Part shown: in pieces, positions 6,089-44,216 of the stretch
How the letters are laid out: every line of letters starts with the position of its first letter
Position numbering within the stretch: the stretch's first letter is position 1
Source of the DNA: an uncultured Pelagibacteraceae bacterium
GTDB lineage: Bacteria > Pseudomonadota > Alphaproteobacteria > Pelagibacterales > AG-422-B15
NCBI GenBank assembly: GCA_902518415.1
Contig: CABYGA010000001.1
Span: 19,356 to 83,355, forward strand
Direction of reading: 5' to 3'
DNA: 64,000 nucleotides
Notes under the pieces: model-generated
What the model was told of the DNA's origin: nothing
Databases searched by the model: none
What the model saw: the letters and a program-made list of their open reading frames with translations, nothing else
Translations under genes and position numbers: made by a program

Positions 6089-6102
6089 AACAAAATTATA
6101 GG

Positions 6103-8172: not shown

Positions 8173-8177
8173 AAATT

Positions 8178-10105: not shown

Positions 10106-10206
10106 TTTTTATATTGTCAATTTAATAAGTTAGGGTATTGTTGAATATTACTGTATTTTATTTAAATTGCCAAAATTTTAACCATTAAATTAATTAGAGA
10201 TCAAAT

Positions 10207-10575: not shown

Positions 10576-10578
10576 TTG

Positions 10579-10654
10579 GGGGCTGTAGCTCAGCTGGGAG
10601 AGCATCAGCATGGCATGTTGAGGGTCACCGGTTCGATCCCGGTCAGCTCCACCA
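10579..10654 (+). tRNA. tRNA-Ala (anticodon GGC)
   Basis: Hand-folded 76-nt cloverleaf. Acceptor is GGGGCTG/CAGCTCC with the G3:U70 Ala identity pair. Anticodon stem is TCAGC/GTTGA with loop AT-GGC-AT. T-loop is GGTTCGATCC. CCA is encoded. Confidence 0.9.
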
Positions 10655-11407
10655 TTAATATTTGAATGCGTCCCCTAGGTAAAACTTCCTTGCCTCTTTG
10701 TTGCCAAGAATTTTATCACTGGTTCCATGAGCAATAATTTCACCATTAAAAAGAAGGTAACTGTAATCGCTAATATCAAGTACTTCTCTAACTTGGTGAT
10801 CAGTAATTATAACTGATATCCCTTTTTTCTTTAGTCTATTAATTTCAGATTTAATATCATTAATTGAGATTGGATCTAGAGCAGAAAAAGGTTCATCAAA
10901 TAAAACATATGAAGGATTTGTACCAAGTAGTCTGGCACATTCACATTTACGTCTCTCCCCACCAGACAATTGATGAGGCATAGCATTTCTCAAGTGAGTT
11001 AAATTAAATTCTGCCAATAACTCTTCAAGTCTGTTTACTCTTTGATCAAGGTTAAGATTAGTGGTTTCTAAAATAGCCATTATATTGTCTTCAACACTCA
11101 ACCCTCTAAAGATACTTGGTTGTTGAGGCAAATAACCTAACCCTGCCTGCGCTCTTTTCCACATAGGCAGTGTTGTAATATCATTATTGTTTAATTTAAT
11201 CTCACCACTATCACAAACTATAAGTCCCATTATACAATATAATGCAGTACTCTTACCAGCACCATTTGGTCCAAGTAGGCCAATAACTTTTCCCTTTTCA
11301 ACTTTAAGAGAAATGTCCCTTACTATTTGCTTCCCAGAAAGTGATTTTCTTAAGTTATTAACTTCAAGCCCAGTATTTGATGAAATTAATTTTGGTTTTG
11401 TAGTCAT
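10655..11407 (-). CDS. lptB: LPS export ABC transporter ATP-binding protein
   Basis: Walker A GPNGAGKST and signature LSGGERRK. Directly downstream of lptC-lptA. Confidence 0.9.
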   Translation of the reverse strand: MTTKPKLISSNTGLEVNNLRKSLSGKQIVRDISLKVEKGKVIGLLGPNGAGKSTALYCIMGLIVCDSGEIKLNNNDITTLPMWKRAQAGLGYLPQQPSIFRGLSVEDNIMAILETTNLNLDQRVNRLEELLAEFNLTHLRNAMPHQLSGGERRKCECARLLGTNPSYVLFDEPFSALDPISINDIKSEINRLKKKGISVIITDHQVREVLDISDYSYLLFNGEIIAHGTSDKILGNKEARKFYLGDAFKY

Positions 11408-11863
11408 CTAATTTTTATCTTTAGCAATTATTAATGCCTCTACTCTTTTAGTAGATTCACTTTTCATAATACTTGATGAGCTCTCTAAATCTACAACTAT
11501 TTCATCACATAATATAATATTTCCATCTTGTTCCACTTTAACCTCACCAATAACAATTAATGATTTATTATTTGGATTATATTTGGCTCTATTTCCATTA
11601 ATGGATAGTTCATCTCTTAATATTCTTACATTATTAAGCGCATCAATTTCTTCAATTGTTTCTTCATCTTCACTGGAAGTAACAATTAATTTATCTGACC
11701 AGATTTGTAAGTTATTTTCAATTGCATGAACGTTACCTGAAAAAATTGAAATATTATCAGTTCTCATAATTTCTAATTTATCAGAGACTATTTTTATTTG
11801 CTTTGCATTGGCGTTAAAAGAGAAGGGAAAAAATAATAAAATAAGAATTAAACTTTTAATCAT
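11408..11863 (-). CDS. lptA: LPS transport periplasmic protein LptA (OstA-like)
   Basis: 151 aa with a signal peptide and an OstA-like beta-jellyroll-sized body. Position between lptC and lptB is diagnostic. Confidence 0.7.
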   Translation of the reverse strand: MIKSLILILLFFPFSFNANAKQIKIVSDKLEIMRTDNISIFSGNVHAIENNLQIWSDKLIVTSSEDEETIEEIDALNNVRILRDELSINGNRAKYNPNNKSLIVIGEVKVEQDGNIILCDEIVVDLESSSSIMKSESTKRVEALIIAKDKN

Positions 11864-11866
11864 AAA

Positions 11867-12382
11867 TTAGTCAATCACATATAAAGTACTTACGTTTCCC
11901 TGGTAAATAATATGGTTAAAATTATTTTTCATTTTTGATTCATCGGCCGTTATAATGCTGCTTTCTTTAATATGTTTAATATTTTTATTAAATTCAATTA
12001 GATCATCATTAATTAAAAATAATGCATAATCTGATTGAAATTTGTCACTTTCATCAGAGTAAAAATTGATTTCTCCACTTAGCTCTATAAAATCTTCTAA
12101 TTGATTAAAGTTCCCCTTTTTAGCATTTAAGTATATCCAAGTGCCAGAATCAGTTCTTAATTTTCCTTCGACATTGAATAATTCTAAATTGTCTTCTTTC
12201 TGGACTCCTCTAGATGCTTTGATTTCATAAAGCCTATTATCAAGTCCTTTTTCAGAAAATCTAGGATTATCTATTTCAATTTCTAAGCTTTCGTTAGAAA
12301 AAGATTTTGACTGGCATAGAGTCATTAACAAAATAAAAACAACTATAAATTTTGCATAACTATCGATTAACTTAGTTAACAT
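11867..12382 (-). CDS. lptC: LPS export protein LptC (start moved to internal ATG)
   Basis: Single N-terminal TM followed by a beta-rich body, between kdsD and lptA. The track ORF start (12448) would overlap kdsD by 77 nt. The ATG at 12382 (MLTKLIDSYAKFIVVF...) leaves an 11-nt overlap. Confidence 0.6.
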   Translation of the reverse strand: MLTKLIDSYAKFIVVFILLMTLCQSKSFSNESLEIEIDNPRFSEKGLDNRLYEIKASRGVQKEDNLELFNVEGKLRTDSGTWIYLNAKKGNFNQLEDFIELSGEINFYSDESDKFQSDYALFLINDDLIEFNKNIKHIKESSIITADESKMKNNFNHIIYQGNVSTLYVID

Positions 12383-13337
12383 ATCGAATGCAGTCATGAA
12401 TATGGATAATACCAATTGGTTTTTTTTCTTTAAAATTATTAACAACAAATAAACATGTAATTTTATTTGAGTTCATTTTTTGTAGTGTATTAATCACTAA
12501 TTCATCCTTACATATAAGCATTGGATTGGGGGACATAATTTCTTTAACATTTACATCTAGGAGAGCCTTTTTTATATGCCTTCTTAAATCTCCATCGGTA
12601 ATGATTCCAATAAGTGTATTCTTTTTATTCTTTACAGCTACATGACCAAGAGATTTTTTTGTCATTTCAATTATAACAGACTCCATTGATGCGTTTTCTT
12701 TAACAATAGGCATCTTTTTTCCAGTATGCATTATATCTTCAACTTGCAGCATATTCGCACCCAAGGCCCCTCCTGGATGAATTTTTTTGTAATCAGAAAG
12801 CTTAAAATTTTTAACTTTCATCAGAGATACACAGATTGCATCTCCTAAAATCAATGATAGCGTAGTTGAAGTTGTAGGGGCAAGCCCTATTGAACATGCT
12901 TCTTTTGAATTTGGAATTAATAATGGAATATCACATGATTTATATAGAGTACTTTTTGCATTGGATGTGATTCCTATAACAAAAACTTTATTTTTTTTTG
13001 CGAAATCTAATAAAGCTCTAAATTCCTCACTCTTTCCAGAATTAGATATAATTATTATGGCATCATTTTTAGCAATTATCCCTAAATCGCCATGACTCAT
13101 ATCTGTTGGAGAGCAATACTGAGAGAGCGTACCCGTTGAACTCATTGTGCTTGAAATTTTACTGGCGATATGACCAGATTTTCCCACACCTGTAATTATT
13201 ACCTTACCCTTAATTTTTGCTAGTTTGCTGATTGCTTTGGCAAAATCTGAATTGATTGATTTAAACAGTTTTTTAGCCCCAGATATTTCTGTTTCTATAA
13301 CTGATTTTCCGTAACTTTTAATTTTATTTGTGCTCAT
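12372..13337 (-). CDS. kdsD: arabinose-5-phosphate isomerase (SIS + tandem CBS)
   Basis: SIS motif GVGKSGHIASK and a C-terminal CBS pair; 321 aa. Confidence 0.88.
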   Translation of the reverse strand: MSTNKIKSYGKSVIETEISGAKKLFKSINSDFAKAISKLAKIKGKVIITGVGKSGHIASKISSTMSSTGTLSQYCSPTDMSHGDLGIIAKNDAIIIISNSGKSEEFRALLDFAKKNKVFVIGITSNAKSTLYKSCDIPLLIPNSKEACSIGLAPTTSTTLSLILGDAICVSLMKVKNFKLSDYKKIHPGGALGANMLQVEDIMHTGKKMPIVKENASMESVIIEMTKKSLGHVAVKNKKNTLIGIITDGDLRRHIKKALLDVNVKEIMSPNPMLICKDELVINTLQKMNSNKITCLFVVNNFKEKKPIGIIHIHDCIRYVN

Positions 13338-13345
13338 GTCTAATA

Positions 13346-13957
13346 TTAATTAGAGTGAGAAAAAATATCATTTTCCCAACCCCTTAAATCGAGTTCAACT
13401 CTAATTGGCAGAAATCTGATGCATGACTCGACAAGCAGTTCCCTATTTTGTCGTTTGAGAATTTCATCTAGTTTAATCTTTATTGCATGCAAGTGCATTA
13501 CATCAGTTGCGGCATAATTAATTTGTTCTTTAGTTAAATCAGGATTTGACCAATCGCTTGATTGCTGTTTTTTTGAAATATCAATGTTTAGAAGTTCCTT
13601 GCATAAATCTTTATACCCATGACCTTGTGAATATGTTCGCGCAATTTTTGAACTTAGTTTTGTGCAATAAACGTTTTTAATCATTATATCTAAGTCATGC
13701 TTTATTGCAGCTAAATCATGTCTCGCATAATGAAAAATGAATGTCTTGTTGCTACTCAGTAGCTTTTTAAGATTGGGAGCGTCAAATTTTTTATCAATAA
13801 ATTGAACTAAATGACAATCACCCTGTCCATCATATAGTTGTATTAGACATAAAGGATCTCTATCAGGCTGCAAACCCATCATTTCACAATCGGCAGCTAT
13901 AAGATCTGAAAATTCAACACTATCTGCCAAATCGTTTTTATGTAAAATTGTTTGCAT
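13346..13957 (-). CDS. rnd: RNase D-like 3'-5' exonuclease (short form)
   Basis: DEDD exonuclease motifs (ADCEMMGL; HYARHDL; YAATDV); 203 aa. Confidence 0.75.
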   Translation of the reverse strand: MQTILHKNDLADSVEFSDLIAADCEMMGLQPDRDPLCLIQLYDGQGDCHLVQFIDKKFDAPNLKKLLSSNKTFIFHYARHDLAAIKHDLDIMIKNVYCTKLSSKIARTYSQGHGYKDLCKELLNIDISKKQQSSDWSNPDLTKEQINYAATDVMHLHAIKIKLDEILKRQNRELLVESCIRFLPIRVELDLRGWENDIFSHSN

Positions 13958-14009
13958 TGTATGAAAATTAACTTATTTCAGAGAAGTACATAAGGTATAT
14001 TTATCAAAT

Positions 14010-14915
14010 ATGAAGCAAAAAAGAATTACTATAATTGGAGGTTCTGGTTTTTTGGCCAAATATTGCATTTCAGAATTACTAAAACTAGGACATAAATTAA
14101 AGATTATATGCAGAAATACTCATCTTGCTGGACATATAAGAATGATGGGGCCTATTGATCAACTAGATATAATTAAGGGAAATATTAATTTAAAACACAC
14201 TATTGAACCTCATATAATTGGATCTGATATTGTCATTAATTTTGTAGGTATACTTAATGAATCTTCAGGGGATCAGACTTTTAATAATTGCCATGCAGTT
14301 GGACCAAAAAACATTTCAGAAATATGCTCTGAACACAAAATCGAACGTTTAATTCACTTTTCATCTATAGGCGCTGATGTTGATAGCGATGCAAAATACC
14401 AAGTATCTAAAGGAATAGGTGAAAAGAATATTTTAGATAATTTTTCACATGCAACAATAATTAGGCCATCGATTGTTTTTGGGCCTGGCGATGGATTTTT
14501 CACCTTGCAGTCAAAACTGGTAAAGCTTCTTCCAATCATTCCCTTGTTTAGCAATAACAAGTTTCAATGCGTGTATGTAAAGGATATAGCCGAGGGGCTA
14601 ATCAAACTTTTAGACGATAAAGAAGCAGCAGGAAAGATCTATGAATTTGGAGGACCTGAAGTCATGACGCTTAAAGAAATTTATCAATTAATTTTAAACA
14701 CATTAAAAATTAAAAGAATTATCCTTCCTCTGCCCCTTTCTTTTGCAAATGTTACCGCATTATTAATGAAATTATCTCCATCTCCTATGATTACATTTGA
14801 TCAAGTCAAGATGTTAAAGAAAGACAACATAGTATCTGATACTCCATACAATCTCAGTTCGTTAGGAATAACTGCAAAATCATCAAGAGATATCATAAGT
14901 AATTATATTTCCTAA
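14010..14915 (+). CDS. NAD(P)-binding epimerase/dehydratase-family protein (complex I NDUFA9-like)
   Basis: Rossmann N-terminus IIGGSGFLAKY; 301 aa. Confidence 0.72.
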   Translation: MKQKRITIIGGSGFLAKYCISELLKLGHKLKIICRNTHLAGHIRMMGPIDQLDIIKGNINLKHTIEPHIIGSDIVINFVGILNESSGDQTFNNCHAVGPKNISEICSEHKIERLIHFSSIGADVDSDAKYQVSKGIGEKNILDNFSHATIIRPSIVFGPGDGFFTLQSKLVKLLPIIPLFSNNKFQCVYVKDIAEGLIKLLDDKEAAGKIYEFGGPEVMTLKEIYQLILNTLKIKRIILPLPLSFANVTALLMKLSPSPMITFDQVKMLKKDNIVSDTPYNLSSLGITAKSSRDIISNYIS

Positions 14916-14918
14916 TTT

Positions 14919-15713
14919 CTAAAGATAAATTAAGATAAGTGTTCCTATAACAATTCGGTAGACAACAAATGGTTTCATCGTATTTTTTTTCAACCATTTA
15001 AGTAAATAGTCGATTGAAATATAAGCCACAAAAAATGAGATCAAAAATCCAAAAAAGCTAGAAGAAATATTAGTACTTGTTGGTGACTCTATGAGTTTAA
15101 GAATTGGTATGGCAGAAGAAATTATAATTACTGGAATTGATAGTAAAATGGAGAGCTTTGCAGCTTCAGTTCTATTTAAACCAATTATTCTTGAACCTGA
15201 ATACACAACTCCCGCTCTACTTGCCCCAGGTATAATCGCTAATATTTGAAAAAGACCAATGATGAGAGCACTTTTTATTGATAATCTCTCAATGCCTTTA
15301 GTGTTGTCATTAGTGTAACTATCAGAATAATAGAGAAGAAGTCCAAAAATTATTGTTGCTAGTCCAACAATTTTTATATTCCTTAAAATGTCAGCATAAC
15401 CTGTAAGAAAAAGTAAGCCCCCAACAATCACAATAGGCAATGTTCCTACAATGAGACAGAAAGCTAAATTTTTCTCATCCTTACTTAATTTGATGCTGAA
15501 TGGTAAAAGCAGAAAAACTAATACTTTAATATCTTTTCTAAAATAGATGATGACAGCCAAAAGAGAGCCCAAATGCAGACTTACATCCAACATCAGACTT
15601 TCGGGAATACTCATTATTTCAGCAGCAATTAATAAATGTCCGGAACTCGAAATAGGCAAAAACTCTGTAATACCCTGAATAATTCCTAATAGTAGTATTG
15701 GTAAAAAAGCCAT
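14919..15713 (-). CDS. uppP: undecaprenyl-diphosphate phosphatase
   Basis: GITEFLPISSSGHL motif and a polytopic membrane protein of 264 aa. Confidence 0.9.
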   Translation of the reverse strand: MAFLPILLLGIIQGITEFLPISSSGHLLIAAEIMSIPESLMLDVSLHLGSLLAVIIYFRKDIKVLVFLLLPFSIKLSKDEKNLAFCLIVGTLPIVIVGGLLFLTGYADILRNIKIVGLATIIFGLLLYYSDSYTNDNTKGIERLSIKSALIIGLFQILAIIPGASRAGVVYSGSRIIGLNRTEAAKLSILLSIPVIIISSAIPILKLIESPTSTNISSSFFGFLISFFVAYISIDYLLKWLKKNTMKPFVVYRIVIGTLILIYL

Positions 15714-15766
15714 AAGAATTAAAAAAATACTGTTTTACGCCATTTAGGCAAGAAAAACTTAAACTG

Positions 15767-15860
15767 TGTCATACTATATGACTATTATTATATATTTTAA
15801 ATGTTATAAAAAGTTTATCTAAATGAGAAGAATCCAAATATGTCATGCATTGTGACATAT
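15767..15860. promoter_or_regulatory. two TGTCA-N7-TGAC(A/T) palindromes upstream of gltD (candidate operator sites)
   Basis: TGTCA-tactata-TGACT at 15767-15783 and aTATGTCA-tgcattg-TGACATAt at 15838-15860. Centre-to-centre distance is 74 bp. The second ends 10 nt before the gltD ATG. Confidence 0.3.
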
Positions 15861-15870
15861 ATAAAACGTT

Positions 15871-17310
15871 ATGCTTAAATTTACTAATTTAAATCAAGAA
15901 TACCCTGAAAAAAGGTCCTCAGAAAATAGAAAAAAAGATTTTGGGGAGATTTATGAGAACTTTATAAAGAACAGCGCTAAAGAGCAGTCAAGTCGTTGTT
16001 CTCAGTGCGGAGTTCCTTATTGCACTGTCCATTGTCCCTTGCATAATCATATTCCTGATTGGCTTAAGCTTGCGGCGGAGGACCGACTTGAAGAGGCTTA
16101 TCAAATATCTTCTAGCACAAATAATATGCCAGAGATATGCGGAAGAATTTGCCCACAAGATCGATTATGTGAAGGAAACTGTGTTATTGAGCAATCAGGT
16201 CATGGTTCGGTCACTATTGGATCAGTAGAAAAATATCTAACTGACAACGCGTTCGAAAAGGGATGGATTAAACCGATCAAAGTTCCTGAGTACTTAGAAA
16301 AAGAAAATAGCATTGGTATCATTGGTGCGGGTCCCGCAGGTCTTGCTGCCGCTGAGGAATTAAGAAAAAGGGGTTACAAAATTGATGTATATGATCGTTA
16401 TGACCGCGCTGGAGGTTTACTGATTTATGGAATCCCGAATTTTAAACTGGAAAAAGATATTGTTCAAAGAAGAATGAAATACCTTGAGGACTCAAATATT
16501 AAGATTCATCTAAATACTGAAATTGGAAAAGATATTCATTTTTTGGATCTTCAAAAAAAACATGACGCTGTATTAATTGCAACGGGAGTCTATAAAGCAA
16601 GAGAAATTTCCCTAGAAGGCGATGCATCTGAAGTAGTTCCTGCTTTGGATTTTCTAACTGCATCAAACCGAAAAGGCTTGGGAGATAGCGTAGAGGCTTT
16701 TGATAATGGATTGCTCAACGCCAATGGTAAGAATGTAGTTGTAATTGGTGGAGGTGATACAGCTATGGACTGCGTAAGAACAGCTATTAGACAGGAGGCA
16801 AAATCCGTTAAGTGTCTTTACCGAAGAGATAAAGAGAATATGCCTGGCTCGGCTAGAGAGGTTAACAATGCTGAGGAAGAAGGAGTAGAATTTTTATGGC
16901 AATCTCTACCAAAAAAAATTGAAAGCAATAATAATGGTAGCCTCTTAAATTGTATAAAAATGAAGTTAAGTGAACCAGACTCCGATGGCAGAAGAATACC
17001 TCAAGAGATAGCAGGTTCTGATTTTGAATTAGAGACCGATTTAGTAATTGCTGCTCTGGGTTTTTCTCCTGAAAATTTGCCAAAAATGTTTGAAGTCGAA
17101 GAACTTCCAGTCACTAAATGGGGTACGGTTCGTGTAGGATTTAATACCATGATGACCAGTCTTGAGGGTGTATTTGCTGCAGGAGATATCGTCAGAGGAG
17201 CTTCGCTGGTAGTTTGGGGAATCAGGGATGGGCGAGATGTAGCAAATTCTATTCATGATTACATTGAAGAAAAAAATAATGCAAAAAATCTAAATACTAA
17301 AGCATCATGA
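15871..17310 (+). CDS. gltD: glutamate synthase (NADPH) small subunit
   Basis: N-terminal Fe-S cysteine clusters (CSQCGVPYC...HCP; CGRICP...CEGNC) and a dinucleotide fold IIGAGPAGLAAA; 479 aa. Confidence 0.92.
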   Translation: MLKFTNLNQEYPEKRSSENRKKDFGEIYENFIKNSAKEQSSRCSQCGVPYCTVHCPLHNHIPDWLKLAAEDRLEEAYQISSSTNNMPEICGRICPQDRLCEGNCVIEQSGHGSVTIGSVEKYLTDNAFEKGWIKPIKVPEYLEKENSIGIIGAGPAGLAAAEELRKRGYKIDVYDRYDRAGGLLIYGIPNFKLEKDIVQRRMKYLEDSNIKIHLNTEIGKDIHFLDLQKKHDAVLIATGVYKAREISLEGDASEVVPALDFLTASNRKGLGDSVEAFDNGLLNANGKNVVVIGGGDTAMDCVRTAIRQEAKSVKCLYRRDKENMPGSAREVNNAEEEGVEFLWQSLPKKIESNNNGSLLNCIKMKLSEPDSDGRRIPQEIAGSDFELETDLVIAALGFSPENLPKMFEVEELPVTKWGTVRVGFNTMMTSLEGVFAAGDIVRGASLVVWGIRDGRDVANSIHDYIEEKNNAKNLNTKAS

Positions 17311-34053: not shown

Positions 34054-35853
34054 ATGACTGGAACCAAAAATATCAGAAACTTCTCAATTATTGCGCATAT
34101 TGATCATGGTAAATCTACGCTCGCAGATAGATTAATACAATTTTGCGGTGGTCTATCAGAACGTGAGATGAAGTCTCAAGTACTTGACTCAATGGATATC
34201 GAGCGGGAAAGAGGGATTACTATTAAAGCACAGACAGTCCAATTAAAGTACAATGCCAAGGACGATGAAATCTATACATTAAATATCATAGACACTCCAG
34301 GTCATGTTGATTTTAGCTATGAAGTTAACCGCTCTCTTTCAGCTTGTGAAGGTTCACTTCTTGTTGTTGATGCAAGTCAAGGCGTAGAAGCTCAAACACT
34401 AGCAAATTTATACCAAGCAGTAGAAAATGATCATGTAATCATTCCCGTATTAAATAAGATTGATTTACCAGCAGCGGATCCTGAGAGAGTAAAAGGACAA
34501 ATTGAGGATATTCTTGGAATTGATACAAGTAATGTATTAGAAATTTCTGCAAAGTCTGGAATAGGTATTGAAGATGTGCTTGAAACTATTGTAAATGATC
34601 TCCCAGCTCCCATAGGCAGTGTAACTGAACCTCTGAAAGCATTGCTTGTTGATAGTTGGTATGACGCTTACTTAGGAGTTGTTGTTTTGGTAAGAGTTAT
34701 TAATGGCACATTAAAAAAAGGTATGGAAGTAAGATTTCATCAAACTGACACCAAGCATTTAATTGAGAGAATTGGATGCTTTACCCCCAAGATGATTATC
34801 AATGAAGAGATTAAGACAGGTGAACTTGGATTTATTACTGCTGCAATTAAAGAGGTTTCTCAAACAAAAGTAGGAGATACTATTATATTATCTAATGATA
34901 AAAAAACACAGCCATTACCCGGATTTAAACCCAGTCAACCAGTAGTATTTTGTGGTCTTTTTCCAACTAATGCAGCAGATTTTAAATTCTTAAAAGATGC
35001 TCTTGCAAAATTAAAGCTTAATGATTCAAGCTTTCATTATGAGCAAGAAACCTCAGCTGCATTAGGCATGGGATTTAGGTGCGGTTTCTTAGGGCTACTT
35101 CACCTTGAGATTATTGTTGAAAGATTGGATAGAGAATTTGATTTAGATTTAATCACGACAGCCCCGAGTGTAATTTACGACATAGTACTTACTGATGAAA
35201 GCAAAATTGAGCTGCATAATCCTGCTGATATGCCTGAGATAATGAAAATCAAAACAATTTCTGAGCCCTGGATTAAAGCAACGATAATATGCCCAGATGA
35301 ATATTTAGGTAGTATCATTTCACTTTGTGAGGACAAACGAGGTATCCAGAATGAACTTACATATTCAGGGTCAAGAGTAATACTTGCTTATAAGCTACCC
35401 CTCAATGAAATTGTTTTTGATTTTTATGACAAACTAAAATCAATATCAAGTGGGTATGCAAGTTTTGATTATGAAATTGATCAGTATATGGAAAGTGATC
35501 TTGTTCGTTTAAGTATACTAGTTAATGATGAGCCTGTTGATGCCTTATCAATTATTGTTCATAGGAACTTTTCTGAAAAAAAGGGTAGAGCCGTATGTGA
35601 AAAACTCAAGGAACTGATTCCTAGACATCAGTTTCATATACCTATTCAAGCAGCAATAGGTGGCAAAATAATTGCTCGAGAAACTGTTCGTGGGTACAGA
35701 AAAAATGTCATTGATCGGATTCATGGTGGTGGTGCTACGGATAGAAAAAGAAAACTACTTGATAAGCAAAAGAAGGGTAAGCAAAGACTTAGAACTTACG
35801 GAAAAGTTGATATTCCTCAAGAAGCATTTATTGCTGCTTTGAAGGTTGAATAA
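34054..35853 (+). CDS. lepA: elongation factor 4
   Basis: GTPase motifs [22 protein letters not shown] and the LepA C-terminal domain; 599 aa. Confidence 0.95.
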
Positions 35854-35943
35854 GGAAAGGTGGCCGAGTGGTTGAAGGCGCACGCTTGGAAAGCGTGTAT
35901 GCGGGTGACCGTATCGTGGGTTCGAATCCCATCCTTTCCGCCA
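35854..35943 (+). tRNA. tRNA-Ser (anticodon GGA), class II with long variable arm
   Basis: Hand-folded. Acceptor is GGAAAGG/CCTTTCC. Anticodon stem is CACGC/GCGTG with loop TT-GGA-AA. It has a long variable arm, T-loop GGTTCGAATCC, and an encoded CCA. It starts at the base after the lepA stop. Confidence 0.92.
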
Positions 35944-35990
35944 TTTTACTCTAAATACTGTTAAAAATATTTCTGCTAAGTTTCTTTTTG

Positions 35991-36009
35991 ACCGCACTTT
36001 GACCGCGGT
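35991..36009 (+). repeat. 8-mer pair with 11-bp period (ACCGCACT-ttg-ACCGCGGT), candidate recombinase arm site
   Basis: Read directly. Lies 48 nt after the tRNA-Ser 3' end. Related to the pairs at 36609 and 39763. Confidence 0.4.
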
Positions 36010-36022
36010 ATAAAGTTCATTT

Positions 36023-36592
36023 ATGGGAAATTCACTTAAAGAGAAGATCATACCACTAACAAAAAATACTCTGGTTTTTTTTGCTATATTCATTTTTCTA
36101 ACTTGGTTACCAGATATTGATAGCATTATTCCACTTCTATATCATCGTGATATGCTAACACATAGCGCCATAATACCTTTTCTAGCACTTTTATACTTAA
36201 CAAGATTTAAATATATATCACCGATTATGATTGCGGCGTTATTTCTGTGCTTTGCTATTCATTTGAGTGCAGATATGTTCCCAAAAGGTTGGAGGGGTTT
36301 TGCTTTATTGCATTTCCCTGTGTTTGGTTTTGCTTTGCCTGGAATGTTAAGCTTTTTGTGGCTATTAGCCAATGTAGTAATCTGTATATTTTTTGCGCAC
36401 AAAATTCTTTTTAAGGGAGACTCAATATTAGTCTCAAAAAGATTCTTCTTTATAATTTCTATTGTACTATCAATTTTATACTTTTTATTTAATGAGCTGC
36501 CTAGTGGAAATGGTCAAACTATCTATTTGATTTTAATTATTGGCCTTACACTTTTTGGTATCAATCGATACGGAGAGAATTATATGAAGTGA
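36023..36592 (+). CDS. membrane-bound metal-dependent hydrolase-like protein (YdjM/DUF457-like)
   Basis: 189 aa, polytopic. LPDIDSIIPLLYHRDMLTHS and AIHLSAD resemble the DUF457 LPDxD...HRxxTHS / HLxxD motifs. Confidence 0.5.
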   Translation: MGNSLKEKIIPLTKNTLVFFAIFIFLTWLPDIDSIIPLLYHRDMLTHSAIIPFLALLYLTRFKYISPIMIAALFLCFAIHLSADMFPKGWRGFALLHFPVFGFALPGMLSFLWLLANVVICIFFAHKILFKGDSILVSKRFFFIISIVLSILYFLFNELPSGNGQTIYLILIIGLTLFGINRYGENYMK

Positions 36593-36608
36593 GCCCTTAA
36601 TCGTGGCT

Positions 36609-36627
36609 ACCGCACTTTTACCGCACT
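36609..36627 (+). repeat. 8-mer pair with 11-bp period (ACCGCACT-ttt-ACCGCACT), candidate recombinase arm site
   Basis: Read directly. Begins 100 nt upstream of tRNA-fragment copy 2. Homologous to the 39763 pair, which begins 98 nt upstream of copy 3. Confidence 0.4.
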
Positions 36628-36675
36628 CACCTGAAGCAATCCAAAAAAACAAGTATTAAAATCCAAGATTTACTT

Positions 36676-36766
36676 AGAAAAATTATCCTCTAATCTTGGA
36701 CTCATGAATTGGAAAGCGTGTATGCGGGTGACCGTATCGTGGGTTCGAATCCCATCCTTTCCGCCA
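36676..36766 (+). repeat. att-like repeat copy 2: 33-nt flank plus 58-nt tRNA-Ser 3' fragment
   Basis: 36709-36766 is 58/58 identical to 35886-35943. The flank 36676-36708 matches 39828-39860 at 30/33. Confidence 0.9.
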
Positions 36767-36793
36767 AACTGCTTAATGAACTTCTAATTCCAA

Positions 36794-37162
36794 TTAATTT
36801 TCAAATTTTATCTCTATCTTATCAAAGTAACCATAAATTACTCCATTTTCTGTAGAGTGACAGCTGTCAATTCTAAAATTTATTTCTTTAGATCCTCCAT
36901 TATTAAGAAGTGCTGAAAGTATCATCTCTCTACCCTTAGCGGTAGGCTCATAGAAAATTAAATCACTTCCCTCGCCCAAACAATTATGATTTTTGTCAAG
37001 GTAGACATATATTCTCTCATCCCATCCAAGCTGGATTCTGTCAACTTTACTTTCATGCCAAAATCCCAATTGACCAGTTTGATTTGACCCATCATACGAA
37101 TATGAATAGCTAAACATATTTAAAGAAATTAGTATTATAATCAATTTTTTTTTAAGAGACAT
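36794..37162 (-). CDS. small secreted protein, unknown function
   Basis: 122 aa with an N-terminal signal-like segment (KKKLIIILISLNMFSYS) and two Cys. Lies 50 nt downstream of the 820-aa gene on the same strand. Confidence 0.5.
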   Translation of the reverse strand: MSLKKKLIIILISLNMFSYSYSYDGSNQTGQLGFWHESKVDRIQLGWDERIYVYLDKNHNCLGEGSDLIFYEPTAKGREMILSALLNNGGSKEINFRIDSCHSTENGVIYGYFDKIEIKFEN

Positions 37163-37212
37163 ATTGGAAAATTTAATCCTTTCCTGTTATCAGATCAATT
37201 TGGAAGAAAAAA

Positions 37213-39675
37213 TTAATTTGATTTTCCTGTCAACCAATCCATTGGAGTAATATATTTTATTAATTCTTTTAAGTCTTCAGCAGTACATTCGTTGCAACCT
37301 CCTTTAGGCATCATCGCCCCATTTCCTGAAAATGCAAGAGATAGAAGAATTACACGATCTTGTGGAAATTTTGCCCATGACTCAAGATCTCCCCTTGTTG
37401 GTGCGCCAAATGATCCATTTTCATGGCACCCAGCACAATTTTGTGTATACAATCTTTCTGTTCTCATCATTACTGTTTCATCAAGAGTTGCTTCACTTAT
37501 TATTTTATTTTTTTCCATTGCTTTTTTCTGCGCTTCAACTATTTCCTGTCCTGGTTTTTTTTGTGAGGCTTCCTTTGTACTTAAAAGTAGAACATAAGCG
37601 ACTTCTCCATCGTTGAAGCCAAGTGCTAGTGATCCATCATAATCAACTGAAACTGTCTTCATATAACCAAAATTAGGAGAAAATTGTATAACCTCATAAT
37701 CATTAGAATCAGGACTGTCATAAACTACTAATCTATAATTTTTAGAGTCGGCGATATATATTTTACCATCTGGACCAATGTCTATCTCATGAGGATAATT
37801 CAATACTCCATTTCCAAATGTATACTGCTTTTCACCTTCGAAGTTTAGAACGCCAATCCAATTTCTTACTCTAGCTACGACATATATAAGTTCTCTTTCA
37901 TGATCAACCTTTAAATAGTATGGTTCTAACCAATCAAATTCATCTCCCTCAGAATTTACTGATAACCATTTTGTTTTTCCCGAAACAGTATCTAACGCCT
38001 GTATTCTTGAATTGATATGTTCCGAAACTATCATCATGTCATCTACAAAATCTAATCCAAATGGAGAATTAAATTTTCCAAGTTGACTCGTAGGTTTTTC
38101 TATCGCATCACCGTAGGTTCCCCAACTTTTTTCAAAATCTCCGGCAAGACTAAATTGTTCGATTCGATGATTACTTCCTTCAGCAATATATACACTCCCT
38201 TCATGTACTTGGACATCTGCTGGGGTCGTATAAATTTGCCCACTGTGAGTACCTCTTTCACCAAAACTATATAAAAATCTTCCAGATTTATCGAATACTT
38301 GAATTTTTGCATTGACACAATCAGTTATAAAAAGTGCATCTTTATAGAAAGCCGAACCGTATGGAAGTTGAAATTCCTCAGAATCATTTCCAATTTTCCC
38401 AAGAATAGAAATGGACTCAAACTTATCAAAATAGTCAATTCTTTCTTTATTCCATACCTGAATTTTTGAGTCCAAAAAAGTTAATCTAATGTTTGCAATA
38501 CATTGTTCCCCATCTTTTTGTTCAAACCTACCAATTAATTCAACTGCTTTTACTGTCCCAAACTTTTTTCTAAGCCTTATGCTGTATCCTCGACTGTCTG
38601 AGTCTAGTCTTGCAATCCCTGCATGTTTTAGTTCTTTAAATTTTAAGTTTAATAGTGACAAATTATTTTTGGCATTATTGATTCCGACTCCTAAATAAAT
38701 AGATTCTCCTTTGAATAAATCTTCATAATAAAAATCTTCATTTCTTAAGTGAAAATTTTCTTCAAAGCACAGTTGCGTATTTATATTGTCAAGCAGCATC
38801 GACTTTGCGTAATTAATTGACCGAGAAAGAGCCATTATTTCTGCGGAATTATATTTAATCTCGTCAGAAACTTTACTTAATTTTTTGGATAGGGTTATTA
38901 ATTCAGTTGATAAGCGAGGTATTGAGTTAATCGCTTCGATAGCAGTTGTTTCATACTTCGACTCTATTTTTTGCATTTCTTTAAACTCAGACTCAGATAT
39001 TATGATTTCTTTTTTTATATTATTTGGCGTCTGTAATTTTTGGACTTCATCATTATTTATTGATTTGTAAGGTGCTAATAAAATTAGTATATTCGCTTCA
39101 CACATGCCACTCTTACTTTGAAACTCGCCAATTAAATTAATATTCAAAAAAGAATCGTTTACGCGATTATATAATTTTAATTGAATAATTGAGTCTGATT
39201 TAGAGATTTCGAAGAGTCCATATGATTTTATCCCTTTGTGCCTTATATCCTTTAAAATTAAATCATTGATACCTACTCGACTATTAATTTTAAAATCAAT
39301 TAAATCGGAGTCATGTCTTTTCGCTAGATTAAAATCTTTATTTTGAAGTACTAATTTATTCTCATCACACTCAATAATTGCAGAATCTTTACCCAATTCT
39401 TTTTCAGCATATTTTATTTGATCAGTATAATTTGTGATCATTTCATAACTTCTCCTAAGCCTGTCTGATTCTTTTGAAAACTCTTCTTTTTTCTTGCTGA
39501 GTATTTTTTCTAAATTTTTTCTTTCATCATCAAATAATGACCAATTCGCAGTAGCATTTTTTTCATTCACATTAGAATATACATAGCCGACAGCTATTAT
39601 TATTGAAATGACCGTAGTGATTAACAGCAGATAAAATAAAAATTTATATTTTTTATAAAAATTTATCATGTACAT
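37213..39675 (-). CDS. membrane-anchored fusion protein: duplicated unknown module + NHL-repeat beta-propeller + cytochrome c5-type domain
   Basis: 820 aa. N-terminal TM (FLFYLLLITTVISIIIAVG). Coiled-coil-like segments. Two ~115-aa homologous modules (~aa 85-200 and 286-401). NHL blades (e.g. LNYPHEIDIGPDGKIYIADSKNYRLVVYD; FITDCVNAKIQVFDKSGRFLYSFG). C-terminal CAGCH heme motif followed by MMPKGGCNECTAEDLKELIKYI (c5-type Met ligand and Cys pair). Confidence 0.8.
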   Translation of the reverse strand: MYMINFYKKYKFLFYLLLITTVISIIIAVGYVYSNVNEKNATANWSLFDDERKNLEKILSKKKEEFSKESDRLRRSYEMITNYTDQIKYAEKELGKDSAIIECDENKLVLQNKDFNLAKRHDSDLIDFKINSRVGINDLILKDIRHKGIKSYGLFEISKSDSIIQLKLYNRVNDSFLNINLIGEFQSKSGMCEANILILLAPYKSINNDEVQKLQTPNNIKKEIIISESEFKEMQKIESKYETTAIEAINSIPRLSTELITLSKKLSKVSDEIKYNSAEIMALSRSINYAKSMLLDNINTQLCFEENFHLRNEDFYYEDLFKGESIYLGVGINNAKNNLSLLNLKFKELKHAGIARLDSDSRGYSIRLRKKFGTVKAVELIGRFEQKDGEQCIANIRLTFLDSKIQVWNKERIDYFDKFESISILGKIGNDSEEFQLPYGSAFYKDALFITDCVNAKIQVFDKSGRFLYSFGERGTHSGQIYTTPADVQVHEGSVYIAEGSNHRIEQFSLAGDFEKSWGTYGDAIEKPTSQLGKFNSPFGLDFVDDMMIVSEHINSRIQALDTVSGKTKWLSVNSEGDEFDWLEPYYLKVDHERELIYVVARVRNWIGVLNFEGEKQYTFGNGVLNYPHEIDIGPDGKIYIADSKNYRLVVYDSPDSNDYEVIQFSPNFGYMKTVSVDYDGSLALGFNDGEVAYVLLLSTKEASQKKPGQEIVEAQKKAMEKNKIISEATLDETVMMRTERLYTQNCAGCHENGSFGAPTRGDLESWAKFPQDRVILLSLAFSGNGAMMPKGGCNECTAEDLKELIKYITPMDWLTGKSN

Positions 39676-39762
39676 AAGAATATTATTTTAGATCCAAAAA
39701 GTCTATTATTTCTAAGTACTAAAAACATACAATTAGACCACTTCACTAATTCAATAATGCAA

Positions 39763-39781
39763 CTGCACTCTCACCATACTC
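39763..39781 (+). repeat. 8-mer pair with 11-bp period (ACTGCACT-ctc-ACCATACT), degenerate copy of the arm-site pair
   Basis: Aligns with 36609-36627 at 13 of 19 positions (20 of 26 over the wider 36610-36635 vs 39764-39789 stretch, including the shared downstream CACCT). It sits at the same distance from its tRNA fragment. Confidence 0.35.
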
Positions 39782-39827
39782 ACCTAAAATAATTTCTAAC
39801 TTCCCCAAATGTAATACCCCGTTTACC

Positions 39828-39918
39828 AGAAAAATTATCCTCTAATTTTAGGCTCATGAATTGGAAAGCGTGTATGCGGATGACCGTATCGTGGGTTCGA
39901 ATCCCATCCTTTCCGCCA
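39828..39918 (+). repeat. att-like repeat copy 3: 33-nt flank plus 58-nt tRNA-Ser 3' fragment
   Basis: 39861-39918 matches 35886-35943 at 57/58 (A instead of G at 39880). Confidence 0.9.
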
Positions 39919-40038
39919 AAATAAATTGATTTCAATTTTTTTAAAGCAAGAAATATTTCAATTGATAGGTTAAGTGTCATATATTTGTAGTAAAATTTGA
40001 TATTGAAAGAGCTAATATTTCTTGATAAAGAAAAAAGT

Positions 40039-40386
40039 ATGAAAAACATATTGCCAATAATACTCTTCGTCTTTTTTATTCCTCTCGCAGCATCATCAGC
40101 TACTTGGGAAAATTGGAAAAAAGAGACTACTGAAATTTCTGAGGGTATTAAACAAACCATAAAAACTTTTTCATCTGGTCGCACTGAAACCACATACGAG
40201 ATAAAAGTCAAAGTTAGGGGAAGAGATGTTTGGGTTGATGCCATTGAAATAAATGGCACCTATGAAATCTCTGAGAAAGGCGAGCAGCAAATCGAAAGAC
40301 AAGAGTCGGGCAATGTTACTGGTCAAAGTTCTGGTAGTGGAGGTAGTAGTGGCGGTAGTAGTGGCGGCAGTGGCGGCGGCTGTTAA
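40039..40386 (+). CDS. small secreted protein with C-terminal Gly/Ser repeat ending in Cys
   Basis: Start moved to the ATG at 40039 (MKNILPIILFVFFIPLAASSA signal peptide). The C-terminus is QSSGSGGSSGGSSGGSGGGC, encoded by a 12-nt-periodic repeat at 40327-40380. Confidence 0.55.
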   Translation: MKNILPIILFVFFIPLAASSATWENWKKETTEISEGIKQTIKTFSSGRTETTYEIKVKVRGRDVWVDAIEINGTYEISEKGEQQIERQESGNVTGQSSGSGGSSGGSSGGSGGGC

Positions 40387-41340
40387 TCAACTCTTACAAA
40401 CTTCAACCTCATTAATACTTTCATAATTTAAGCTTGATGTTTTAAAATGCCTTTTGTCACTAGATAAACGAAGCGAATCTTTCAATTCTCCAACAAGAAT
40501 TTTATCAAATATATTTAACAATCGCTGATCACAAGCAAATAAAAAAAATGGTTTTGCAACATTTTCATGTAATTTTTCATTATTCTCTTCATAACCCCAA
40601 TAAGGAGGATAAATAATTAACGTTTTTTTTGAATCAAAATTACTTAATACGTCTCTTATTTGATCAATTATTTTTGACATAGATAATTGAAGTTCCTCAT
40701 CATCTATGCTTAAGAATTGTTTAAGATTCGATTGTCTAACATCATTTGTGATTGTAAAAAATTTACCCTCAACCATTCCTTTAAGGATAATTAAATCATA
40801 GATAAATGGAGATTTTAAAACATCATAAATATTTTTTTCATTAAGAGGTACAAAATCTTCAACTTTCCATCCAGGTTGTATTCTAAAAATATCTGTTCCA
40901 TAATTAAAGCCTAATACTATATCACTTTTATAATTAATTTTGGTTTCATTCATATCTCTGAGTTTTTCAGTAACTTGAAAAGGACCATTATTCGGTGCAG
41001 CATATAGAACAAGATTTTTATTTGGAAAAATTTCAGCAATATCATGAATTGTATCAGAATCTTTACTTGACCAATCAATCCCTAGAATTTGACTATCACC
41101 AAAAACGTGAACTTTACTTGAGTCATGTTCAGAGTTGACATTTATTAACCTTGCACCGTTTTCATCAGTTTCTATATGTATTTCTCCATCTCCTTTACTA
41201 AAGCAAAACTTTAAAGTTTCAGGTAGATAAACAATTTTTCCATTAGAAGCGTAAGGAATAAAGCTGAAACACTCAGCATATGAATTACATGCTAAGATAA
41301 AAAATAGTATTAAAATTTTGTATAAATAACTTAATATCAT
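40387..41340 (-). CDS. secreted SGNH/GDSL-family hydrolase-like protein
   Basis: Signal peptide, block I VHVFGDSQILG, block III-like AAPNNG, and a C-terminal DKRH (DxxH); 317 aa. Confidence 0.6.
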   Translation of the reverse strand: MILSYLYKILILFFILACNSYAECFSFIPYASNGKIVYLPETLKFCFSKGDGEIHIETDENGARLINVNSEHDSSKVHVFGDSQILGIDWSSKDSDTIHDIAEIFPNKNLVLYAAPNNGPFQVTEKLRDMNETKINYKSDIVLGFNYGTDIFRIQPGWKVEDFVPLNEKNIYDVLKSPFIYDLIILKGMVEGKFFTITNDVRQSNLKQFLSIDDEELQLSMSKIIDQIRDVLSNFDSKKTLIIYPPYWGYEENNEKLHENVAKPFFLFACDQRLLNIFDKILVGELKDSLRLSSDKRHFKTSSLNYESINEVEVCKS

Positions 41341-41345
41341 AAGTA

Positions 41346-42119
41346 ATGTTCAAAATCGTAAATTTTAAAAAAAGAAATGTCAAAGGATTACCTTTACAAA
41401 AAGTTTGTTTAGACTTCGCATTAGCAGAATTTTCATCAGCTATCGAAATGCTATATGCAAGTAAAAAAGTTGATAATCCAAATTTAGCAATTGGATTTTT
41501 GAAGCATAGTTTAGACGAATATCGTCATACAAATTTTTTTAAAAAGCTAATTGTAGAAAGTGACAAATCTAATTCAAAAGAGGTGTTAAAATTTGTACCC
41601 CGTCTTGTTTATAGTAAAGGATTTATAAACGAAAATAGATTCTTGTTTGATAAAATGAAAATTAATGAGTTTTCTGTATTTATTGGAGTAAATGAGATGC
41701 AAGCTCTAAAAATATTTGAGAAGTTTAGAGACCAAAACTTACGATTAGAAGATAGTATCAAAAGAGAACTAGACAACATTATTAAAGAAGAAAGTGATCA
41801 TTCTTTAAATACTAGCAGCATTTTTATTAACAATTTATCCAACCTGATTATTGATGAAGAAAAGCATTCTAGACTTGCTTTACAATTTTCTAAAAAAAAC
41901 ATAAAAAAAATGAAATATAAATTATTGTACTTTAAATATTTGATATCTAATAAACTGAGACATTTTGTTGCGAATTCTGAATTCACAAAAAAAATTTTAT
42001 CATATATTATTGTATTTTTTTTGATACTGCTTACTTTTCCACTTAAATTTGCATTAAATACGAAGACCATATCAAATGGTTTCCATTTAGATAAAAACGA
42101 TGCAAATTTAATTTTATGA
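41346..42119 (+). CDS. ferritin-like di-iron carboxylate protein with C-terminal TM helix
   Basis: ExxH motifs (LDEYRH; EESDH; DEEKH) spaced as in di-iron four-helix bundles. TM segment ILSYIIVFFLILLTFPL; 257 aa. Confidence 0.5.
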   Translation: MFKIVNFKKRNVKGLPLQKVCLDFALAEFSSAIEMLYASKKVDNPNLAIGFLKHSLDEYRHTNFFKKLIVESDKSNSKEVLKFVPRLVYSKGFINENRFLFDKMKINEFSVFIGVNEMQALKIFEKFRDQNLRLEDSIKRELDNIIKEESDHSLNTSSIFINNLSNLIIDEEKHSRLALQFSKKNIKKMKYKLLYFKYLISNKLRHFVANSEFTKKILSYIIVFFLILLTFPLKFALNTKTISNGFHLDKNDANLIL

Positions 42120-43834
42120 AAAAATATATAATTGGTATCTCAGCTTACTACCACGAAAGCTCTATAACTTTACTATCAGAAAATAAATTACTGGATTACA
42201 TTAAAGAAGAAGAAGTAACTCGAGTTAAAGGTGACTATAAATTTCCATTTCAAACACTTAAACTTATAATTAATAAATATAAAATCAAAAATTCTCAAAT
42301 TGAAGCAATTGTTTTTTATGAGAAACCTTTTCTTGGCTGGTCTGCAATAACTTATAATGCCTTATCTAGTCCAATTAAAAAATGGAAAATGGTACTTAAT
42401 CAATTTCAAAAGTTTTGGACAGGGTCCCTAAGCTTTTCTAGTGATCTATTAAAAATAATAAAAATTCCTAAAAAAAAAATATTCTATTGTCCCCATCACA
42501 TAAGCCATGCTTTAAATGGTATATATTTCACTAGTAATCAAAAAAAGAATTTTTTAATATTTGTTATTGATGGGATTGGCGATGGTGAAACGATGTCCAT
42601 TTTTAAAAAAATTAATAACGAGATTATTACAGAAAAGAAATGTGTTTATCCGCATTCTATAGGATTGTTTTATAGCACATTTACTCAATTCTTAGGCTTC
42701 AATGTTAATGAAGGAGAAAGTAAAGTTATGGGATTAGCATCATATGGAACACCTATTTTTAAAGATTTCATCCTAAACAAAATCATAAGTATAAAAAATG
42801 ATGAAATACTTATTGATGAGACTTGGTTTTCTTTTACTTCAGAACCTGAGAGATCTTACTCAGAAAAATTTGAAAATAAGTTTGGTAAACCTGGAAAATT
42901 AATAGATTATTCTGATTTTAAAAGTGACGAATTTGCAAGACTTGCAAATATAGCTGCGTCTGTTCAATCCGCAACAGAGGAACTAATTAAAATATTAATA
43001 GCTATTTTTGTAAAAAAAACATCTATCAAAAATATTATTTTCTCTGGTGGTGTGGGTTTAAATTCAAGAGTTATGCAAATAGTCAGTGAAATGAATGAAA
43101 TAGAAGAATTAACCGTACCAGCATCACCTGGAGATGCTGGCTCATCTTTGGGTGCAGCTATTTATGGAAATATGGTTTTATCTAATTTTAAATTTCCTGA
43201 ATTTGAATTGTATCCAGGTAAATTTTATAATGAAAATATACAATCTAATATATTTAAGAGATTATTTAAAAAAATTGAGTTAAATAATGGAATAGAGGAC
43301 GCTGTAGCTGACTTAATTCAAAAAGGGAATATAATTGCAACATTTATTAATCAACGTGAATTTGGTCCTAGAGCTTTAGGCTCAAGATCACTTATTTGCG
43401 CAGGTAATCAAAATAAAGTAGTCGAAAAATTAAATATAGAGATAAAAAAAAGGGAAAAGTTTAGACCTTTAGCGCCAATGATAAGAGATGAAAACTTCGA
43501 TAAATATTTTTCATGTGCAAATAATTCTAAACACAATTTACTCTGGATGGGAATGACAGTTGATGTAAAAGAGGAAATGATTAATAAATACCCTAAAGCT
43601 GTTCATATAGATCATACGTCAAGAGTACAAATTATTAATAAGTATAATGATTTATTTTATTCGTTACTTTTAAAGTTAGAGCAAAAAGATGTTGATATAT
43701 TGATTAATACGTCATTTAACATTGCAGGTGACCCCATGGTTTTTGATTTCGTTGACTGTTATACAAATATGAAAAGAATGGATATACAATATTTACTTGC
43801 TGATAATGGGCTTTATAAAATTAATAGTATATGA
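42116..43834 (+). CDS. NodU/CmcH-family carbamoyltransferase
   Basis: 572 aa. N-terminus IIGISAYYHESSITLL, CPHHISHALNG, GGVGLNS, FGPRALGSRSLI, all hallmarks of the family. Its ATG overlaps the upstream stop (ATGA). Confidence 0.88.
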   Translation: MKKYIIGISAYYHESSITLLSENKLLDYIKEEEVTRVKGDYKFPFQTLKLIINKYKIKNSQIEAIVFYEKPFLGWSAITYNALSSPIKKWKMVLNQFQKFWTGSLSFSSDLLKIIKIPKKKIFYCPHHISHALNGIYFTSNQKKNFLIFVIDGIGDGETMSIFKKINNEIITEKKCVYPHSIGLFYSTFTQFLGFNVNEGESKVMGLASYGTPIFKDFILNKIISIKNDEILIDETWFSFTSEPERSYSEKFENKFGKPGKLIDYSDFKSDEFARLANIAASVQSATEELIKILIAIFVKKTSIKNIIFSGGVGLNSRVMQIVSEMNEIEELTVPASPGDAGSSLGAAIYGNMVLSNFKFPEFELYPGKFYNENIQSNIFKRLFKKIELNNGIEDAVADLIQKGNIIATFINQREFGPRALGSRSLICAGNQNKVVEKLNIEIKKREKFRPLAPMIRDENFDKYFSCANNSKHNLLWMGMTVDVKEEMINKYPKAVHIDHTSRVQIINKYNDLFYSLLLKLEQKDVDILINTSFNIAGDPMVFDFVDCYTNMKRMDIQYLLADNGLYKINSI

Positions 43835-43983
43835 TTAGGATTATTGAAATATTCTTGCATGTCAAAAAAAGACTTTCTCTGTTTCAGAGTATAATTATTC
43901 TAATTATTTCAATAATTGCAATTTTGGCCTTATTAATCAAAGCTCTCACATTTTTCTTGCCATTCACTTATGTAGCTTTTTAA
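43831..43983 (+). CDS. 50-aa hydrophobic micro-ORF translationally coupled to the carbamoyltransferase
   Basis: ATG at 43831 overlaps the carbamoyltransferase TGA (ATGA). Encodes MIRIIEIFLHVKKRLSLFQSIIILIISIIAILALLIKALTFFLPFTYVAF, with one clear TM. Below the ORF-track size cut-off. Confidence 0.3.
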   Translation: MIRIIEIFLHVKKRLSLFQSIIILIISIIAILALLIKALTFFLPFTYVAF

Positions 43984-44002
43984 TTAATTTTAACTGTGTA
44001 TG

Positions 44003-44185
44003 TTACAATCCACCAGTGACAAGACCTACAAAGCCGAGTATCAGCCATAAAACGAGCATAGCCTTTTCATCAAACTTTTTTGTACTTTCAATTCCTTTAA
44101 TTTGCTTTCTAGCGAATAAGGTTAGAAGCAATATAAGGACTATCAGATATACAATAGTAAATGCCATAAGTGATAAGTGTAGCAA
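44003..44185 (-). CDS. 60-aa two-TM membrane protein, unknown
   Basis: ORF with two hydrophobic helices separated by a basic loop. No family recognised. Confidence 0.35.
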   Translation of the reverse strand: MLHLSLMAFTIVYLIVLILLLTLFARKQIKGIESTKKFDEKAMLVLWLILGFVGLVTGGL

Positions 44186-44216
44186 GTAAGAAATAATTGT
44201 ATATAAAATATATATA

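Follow-up and report, generated by a model that had tools for sequence, protein, structure and literature searches.

How do new gene cassettes enter the chromosomes of SAR11 bacteria, which are among the ocean's most abundant? Their variable cassettes carry almost no canonical mobility functions, and the accessible text of two reports describes the mechanism of insertion as unresolved (10.64898/2026.10.07.757358; PMC11796062), the first of them noting that XerC and XerD alone are common. The question is raised in concrete form by a 64,000-nucleotide stretch of DNA from an uncultured Pelagibacteraceae bacterium (hereafter the window; contig CABYGA010000001.1, positions 19,356 to 83,355), in which two islets, A and B, lie in tandem behind a tRNA-Ser(GGA) gene and are each followed by a displaced copy of the tRNA 3' end (Table 1). 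A sequence-only reading of this DNA had noticed pairs of related 8-mers, one helical turn apart, at the islet ends, and had taken them for arm-type binding sites of a recombinase. Comparison with related genomes supports that interpretation. The pairs are probably arm-type sites of an attachment (att) site, and the islets integrase-less integrative cassettes that are served in trans.

All three pairs are present in the sequence at a period of 11 nt. The first two lie where the sequence-only reading had placed them, 48 nt past the 3' end of the tRNA and 100 nt upstream of the first tRNA fragment, respectively; the third, which it had put at 39763-39781 and 98 nt from its fragment, starts one nucleotide earlier, at a distance of 99 nt. 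The alignment of the two islet ends likewise stood for the wider stretch (20/26) and the fragment-proximal flank (30/33), while the second and third pairs agree at 14 of 19 positions instead of 13. The first and second pairs share 16/19 positions, and islet A indeed has candidate sites on both arms around one open reading frame (ORF). The pair pattern, allowing three mismatches at most, gave three matches in the window against 0.06 expected; none of 100 shuffles reached three. On both strands of the whole 929-kb assembly (42 contigs, 77% complete, ~33% G+C), it gave four matches, namely these three and an unrelated three-mismatch match at C1:12752. The pair is therefore not the generic repeat that would, according to the sequence-only reading, have refuted its proposal. 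The single 8-mer ACCGCACT has 13 copies genome-wide, three of them at the locus.

Both displaced fragments open at TTGGAAA, the anticodon-loop sequence of tRNA-Ser(GGA), and close with CCA. The identity block accordingly extends from this loop to the 3' terminus of the tRNA, as in anticodon-loop-type integration sites, a class that reportedly goes back to the classification of tRNA sites by Williams in 2002. Among the 19 tRNA and tmRNA genes in the assembled part of the genome, only tRNA-Ser(GGA) has such fragments. The insertions are precise: in eight genomes of the genus, the tRNA is joined directly to the flank that follows the displaced fragment in three islet-bearing relatives (G003, G004 and G073). 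Five genus genomes gave no tRNA-Ser match; the lepA-tRNA junction is unassembled in them.

The right arm of islet A was detected in 10 of 60 genomes of the family, this genome included (E <=4e-9). A more typical arm, used as the query, was found in 10/401 genomes of the order, all of them in the genus of the window (this genome and 9 of the other 46), and in 0/341 genomes of the sister family. The exact junction pattern occurred on 12 short metagenome contigs and, across one genome per species (185,579 species), at 10 loci on nine contigs, all from Pelagibacteraceae. The islet ends are thus conserved in other copies, and a lack of such conservation would have spoken against arm-type sites in the sequence-only reading; the pairs co-occur with tRNA-Ser(GGA) fragments in the related islets of genomes and metagenomes.

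Both ends were recovered for 17 islets of 0.6-3.1 kb, or 15 after the removal of two duplicates (L108_42 and L119_47). We searched their arms with an unbiased finder that reports the best 8-mer direct repeat of period 10-12 with at least three G/C. A left pair at period 11 with at most one mismatch was found in 15/17 islets, starting 43-47 nt past the tRNA end in 12, 57 nt in two and 75 nt in one, and a right pair at period 11 in 16/17, starting 94-111 nt ahead of the fragment. In a period control on the 15 islets, 8-mer pairs appeared at period 11 in 13 left arms and 9 right arms, as against 0-1 and 0-3 arms, respectively, at the other periods from 8 to 20. Measured from the anticodon-loop boundary, and with an identity block of 58 nt, the left pair begins ~101-105 nt downstream and the right pair ~100 nt upstream. 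In a circle, the crossover region would thus lie almost midway between the two pairs. Such a layout, with words repeated in both arms around the core but outside the crossover region, is that of arm-type sites. In an alignment of the 15 right arms, the non-coding stretch between the pair and the fragment is conserved, whereas the cargo upstream of the pair is not; the pair itself is a mix of fixed and variable columns.

Two islets lack the left pair, islet B and that of G081, and in both an ORF extends up to the tRNA copy. Their displaced fragments carry one and several substitutions, respectively. For islet B, the best left-arm candidate of the finder had two mismatches and period 12. A further candidate picked by eye, TTATCTCT-atc-TTATCAAA at ~36798-36816, was rejected as too weak and unlike the right pair of islet B.

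Between the right pair of islet A and its fragment (36628-36708), three blocks with an A-tract and AATTC/TTATC-like motifs, ~22 nt apart, were made out by eye in the conserved arm, using that of G004; they may be further protein-binding or bending sites. Rfam returned nothing on the arms, the only matches being the tRNA itself and weak sub-threshold ones on the fragments. At one locus (L069, G068), a TATCCAAA-type pair stands directly behind the first tRNA fragment, with a right-arm match and a degenerate fragment shortly beyond. Judged from coordinates only, the arrangement may represent an arm that is nearly devoid of cargo.

The words themselves vary between islets, and the left and right words of one islet share a class. 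The class of the window is ACCGCACT, with similar words in G081 and L113 (G, genome; L, locus). AGCCCA(A/C)T words occur in G013, G003, G073 and L111; GGCACACT, GTCACACT or GATCACA(A/C)T words in G004, G033, G079, G023 and L114; CTTCCACA in G068 and L119; and TATCCAAA in L115. Left-right similarity was scored as the best ungapped 19-nt match of a left window to a right one; the two decayed islets were kept and the two duplicates dropped. The mean was 15.07/19 within an islet versus 12.93/19 between islets, and 0/20000 permutations of the pairing reached the observed sum. Position and phasing are conserved among related elements, and the words co-vary between the arms, as arm-type sites would. 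The presence of at least five word classes on one conserved arm scaffold suggests that there are several cognate integrase specificities.

The same design is found in elements of the order that do carry an integrase. PF00589 matches were present in 58/60 family genomes, usually two, and extra integrases in only five (G035, G063, G065, G067 and G009). In G067, the extra integrase gene is next to tRNA-Lys, within an element of 6.6 kb that a tRNA-Lys repeat of 45 nt delimits. The left pair of this element, TGACGTCCA-ta-TGACGTCCA, lies 57 nt past the tRNA, just before the integrase gene (int), and its far-end pair, TGACGTCCC-tc-TGACGTACT, ~138 nt before the tRNA-Lys repeat. Homologues of this integrase occur in 32/401 genomes of the order, next to tRNA-Met, Arg, Val, Lys or tmRNA. 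Of 28 such loci, 17 have an 8-mer pair of period 11 in the 100 nt ahead of int and five have one of period 12, with 0-2 loci at each other period. In all seven elements for which both ends were found (G067, G087, two in G044, G088, G051 and G379), the left and right words match. The co-occurrence of such pairs with an integrase gene, which the sequence-only reading had proposed to look for, is seen in these relatives, at other tRNAs and directly upstream of int.

The integrase of G067 was modelled with AlphaFold from a 23-sequence alignment (mean predicted local distance difference test score, 89.7). Residues 1-41 are predicted to form three strands and a helix, and residues 1-333 align with residues 16-356 of full-length lambda integrase (1z1b_B) with Z 20.2 over 311 residues; the high root-mean-square deviation of 7.3 is due to domain placement. 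The Pelagibacterales integrase thus models as a lambda-Int-like protein with an N-terminal sheet-plus-helix domain.

Two other integrase-bearing loci are of note. At tRNA-Met in G044 (L152, oriented ~119-16093), two tandem elements, at least the first of which carries an integrase, have left pairs of the GCGTC type and the GCTCCAAT type; the right pair of each is a hybrid of the two word types (GCTCCA.. plus GCGTCAAT), suggestive of an arm exchange between the neighbours. In G379 (L121, L158), the tRNA-Ser(GGA) anticodon loop harbours an integrase-bearing element of 5.4 kb with GGACGTC-type pairs on both arms. This element duplicates the 5' half of the tRNA and not the 3' half, and for that reason was ruled out as a helper for the islets described here.

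These observations suggest the following mechanism. Islets A and B would have entered tRNA-Ser(GGA) by site-specific recombination at the identity block, each insertion displacing a 58-nt tRNA fragment because the block spans the anticodon loop to the 3' end. Circularised, an islet would have an attP of ~225 bp, made up of its right arm, the 58-nt core and its left arm, with two tandem sites on each side, ~100 nt from the anticodon-loop boundary. The words would be contacted by the N-terminal domain, and the core by the other domains, of a lambda-type (heterobivalent) tyrosine integrase from a clade found in Pelagibacterales; the enzyme would bridge arm and core, and would be supplied in trans by a transient or co-resident element and not by the islets. 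We infer the binding of a protein to the words, the identity of that protein, the mobilisation in trans and any present-day activity from the comparisons above. Islet A looks like an intact attL-cargo-attR substrate, with both arms and a perfect core, and might be a substrate for excision. Islet B looks like a decayed, older and immobile insertion, a fossil, its left pair being missing, its right pair degenerate and its core substituted.

No recombinase, of PF00589 or any other family, was found among the islet ORFs, which are mostly one to three per islet. Their products include type IV pilin-like proteins in G033 and G079, a PLD-like protein in G004 and a T5orf172 protein in G033, besides small secreted or membrane proteins, and the cargo looks like surface and defence functions. 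In the islets of G033 (L068) and G079 (L070), type IV pilin-like genes encoding the N-terminal methylation motif come in runs. When 23 integrases were compared by tblastn with 90,692 bases of islet and downstream sequence, neither an integrase nor a remnant of one appeared below E 0.03, and no common small protein is encoded across the integrase-less islets. A recombinase encoded elsewhere, as the sequence-only reading implied, fits these data.

Several results weigh against cassettes that are served in trans through arm-type sites. A helper integrase for this tRNA-Ser site was found neither in the genome itself nor in the 60 family genomes. The assembly, at its 77% completeness, has two tyrosine recombinases, which match XerD (309 bits) and XerC (317 bits) best without quite reaching the equivalog cut-offs, and no further integrase or serine recombinase. 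The 10 islet-bearing genomes, of which one is 100% and one 99% complete, also gave XerC/XerD-like matches only. Viral contigs, scanned in turn for the 3' end of the tRNA, for the core's first half and for the arm-junction pattern, gave no match in any of the three cases. Right pairs are often imperfect, with two to three mismatches in 6/17 islets, and hybrid pairs occur in one right arm (the first islet of G033) and in the G044 tandem. Descent probably links the islets of a class and may account for part of the covariation; the independent events are then few, namely ~5 class changes, each concerted over four half-sites. In searches of phage sequences, the right arm with its fragment (blastn) gave only tRNA-like matches to unrelated phages, and the G067 integrase (tblastn) only distant integrases (<=36%) of unrelated hosts.

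The missing helper would be explained if the pairs were arm-type sites by descent only, left idle in the decayed remnants of integrase-bearing elements. We consider this unlikely, although it is the alternative that survives best. It resembles what is described for cis-mobilizable elements (CIMEs), which the accessible text of a review defines as decayed elements retaining attL and attR, derived from integrative and conjugative or integrative and mobilizable elements that move by conjugation, and mobilised in cis once accretion has taken place (PMC5704250). Like CIMEs so described, the islets keep attL and attR, have no integration genes and stack in tandem at a tRNA 3' end; no conjugation genes were seen in them, in the course of searches not aimed at such genes. 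The loss of the left pair and the substituted fragments in islet B and the G081 islet also fit decay. In contrast, both pairs persist, little mismatched and in agreement between left and right, in 13 of the 15 non-redundant islets, the arm is conserved where the flanking cargo is not, and the islets, mostly one to three genes long, show neither an integrase remnant nor, unlike CIMEs, any trace of decayed genes. Furthermore, a copy of islet A identical at 833/840 positions lies next to a different neighbour on a metagenome contig (L108), the remaining 4 kb of which are without islet B. Islet A is therefore a discrete module, and either independent insertion or an exchange by homologous recombination at the repeats could account for the different neighbours. 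At ~99% identity, islet A also occurs on short contigs from two sequencing runs; the joints there lie within repeated arm or core sequence and so say nothing about excision or circles, and stretches that two runs leave uncovered carry no weight.

Excisionase sites, too, are typically helically phased direct repeats in tandem, usually confined to one arm. The pairs might accordingly bind an accessory factor, such as a protein like an excisionase (recombination directionality factor) or another bending protein, in place of the integrase N-terminal domain, and the further conserved blocks of the right arm could serve as such sites. This appears improbable, since the pairs stand on both arms, the integrase-less islets share no small protein and, in the integrase-bearing elements, the word class shifts from element to element alongside diverged integrases.

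It is far less likely still that the pairs are operators or promoter elements of the adjacent gene, meaning int in the full elements and the cargo in the islets. A promoter-like TTGACC-17-TAAAGT match (35988-36016) does overlap the left pair of islet A just upstream of its ORF, and the pair of the full elements lies directly upstream of the int ribosome-binding site. Against this, promoter-like matches in the region numbered 20 versus 19.5 in shuffles, the combined promoter and terminator scan of the region being not above shuffles, and the right pairs carry the same words at the islet 3' end, away from any start. The pairs could also have a dual role, as arm sites and in autoregulation. Replication-origin iterons or a chance repeat can practically be dismissed: large ORFs of some integrase-bearing relatives might be replication genes (for example, an unannotated one of 597 aa in G379), but each cluster has just two copies, split over both ends around the att core, the pairs occur in islets of 0.6-1.9 kb without a replication gene, and chance is excluded by the window shuffles, the left-right permutations and the period control.

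As arm-type sites, the pairs can be compared with those of known systems. The lambda attP has the arm-type sites P1, P2 and P'1-P'3, and that of mycobacteriophage L5 has paired arm sites. The islets share with both the short direct repeats, which are helically phased and stand tens of bases away from the core in each arm, a repeat sequence unlike the core, and tandem sites on the int-proximal arm; in the model, the related Pelagibacterales integrases resemble full-length lambda Int, N-terminal domain included. Unlike the sites of lambda and L5, those of the islets are not accompanied by a cognate integrase, they form one tandem pair per arm at a nearly symmetric ~100 nt from the anticodon-loop boundary, and several word classes occupy one conserved scaffold. 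Integron cassettes are small, mostly promoter-poor cargo without a recombinase of their own, stacked at one site, and the enzyme that moves them is encoded outside the cassettes. The islets are likewise small, stacked and devoid of a recombinase, which would be encoded elsewhere; in contrast to integrons, there is no attC hairpin and no IntI by the array, and the site is a tRNA core with duplex arm sites.

Among marine systems, the tycheposons of Prochlorococcus islands and their remnants are, according to the accessible preprint text, tandem elements bounded by partial tRNA copies (bioRxiv 10.1101/2020.12.28.424599). The islets resemble them in the streamlined marine host, the tRNA-anchored islands, the tandem arrangement and the adaptation or defence cargo. 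The tycheposons described there carry their own tyrosine recombinase and mobility genes, which sets the islets apart from them; the word 'arm' is absent from the main text of that preprint. For SAR11 islands, partial tRNA repeats have been described as marks of cassette insertion, in an article whose accessible part does not extend to the arm sites, the link to an integrase clade and the cassette family reported here (PMC11796062). Pelagiphages are described as integrating into tRNA genes (10.1101/410191), and another 2026 preprint, as far as its accessible text goes, places insertion at tRNA-anchored boundaries. A full-text search, with paywalled papers and supplements outside its scope, gave no link of arm-type sites with Pelagibacter.

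With complete attL and attR, including candidate arm-type sites, in a design common to integrase-bearing elements of the same order, the cassettes offer a concrete and testable mechanism and, with it, a testable route for gene gain by streamlined SAR11 cells. The word classes provide a handle for matching cassettes to integrases. As a tentative extension, the genus may keep a pool of integrase-less cassettes of one or a few genes, with one conserved attP scaffold and at least five distinct word classes, each class read by a transient integrase variant that could be delivered, for example, by a rare element, a phage or a vesicle. This would amount to an integron-type exchange of cassettes at a tRNA gene. 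If true, it would explain how cells without resident mobile-element genes swap pilin, defence and envelope genes.

Table 1. Positions of the tRNA-Ser(GGA) gene, the islets and the candidate arm-type sites in the window.
Feature	Position	Strand	Remarks
lepA	34054-35853		
tRNA-Ser(GGA)	35854-35943	+	ARAGORN; Rfam tRNA, 60.7 bits
att identity block, last 58 nt of tRNA-Ser(GGA)	35886-35943		anticodon loop to CCA; core side of attL
Islet A	35944-36708		single ORF, 189 aa
Left-arm pair of islet A, ACCGCACT-ttg-ACCGCGGT	35991-36009	+	period 11; candidate arm-type sites; equivalent of int-proximal arm
Sole ORF of islet A, 189 aa	36023-36592	+	hydrophobic; no Pfam/NCBIfam family
Right-arm pair of islet A, ACCGCACT-ttt-ACCGCACT	36609-36627	+	period 11; 0 mismatches between words
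Right arm of islet A, 100 nt	36609-36708	+	pair plus non-coding stretch conserved between islets up to tRNA fragment
First displaced tRNA-Ser 3' fragment	36709-36766	+	58/58 identical; attR core of islet A
Islet B, 3094 nt	36767-39860		two minus-strand ORFs; no convincing left-arm pair
Islet B ORF, 122 aa	36794-37162	-	
Islet B ORF, 820 aa	37213-39675	-	NHL/beta-propeller and cytochrome c domains
Right-arm pair of islet B, ACTGCACT-ctc-ACCATACT	39762-39780	+	degenerate version of islet A word
Right arm of islet B	39762-39860	+	77% identity to G004 arm over 84 nt
Second displaced tRNA-Ser 3' fragment	39861-39918	+	57/58 identical

Two minor features of the region may be added. The 189-aa protein of islet A is very hydrophobic and contains an HRD..THS stretch. 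Beyond the last tRNA fragment, the interval up to a conserved 400-aa gene (39919-44200) is not bounded by further tRNA fragments; it holds ORFs of 129, 317, 257 and 572 aa, and its content varies among relatives.

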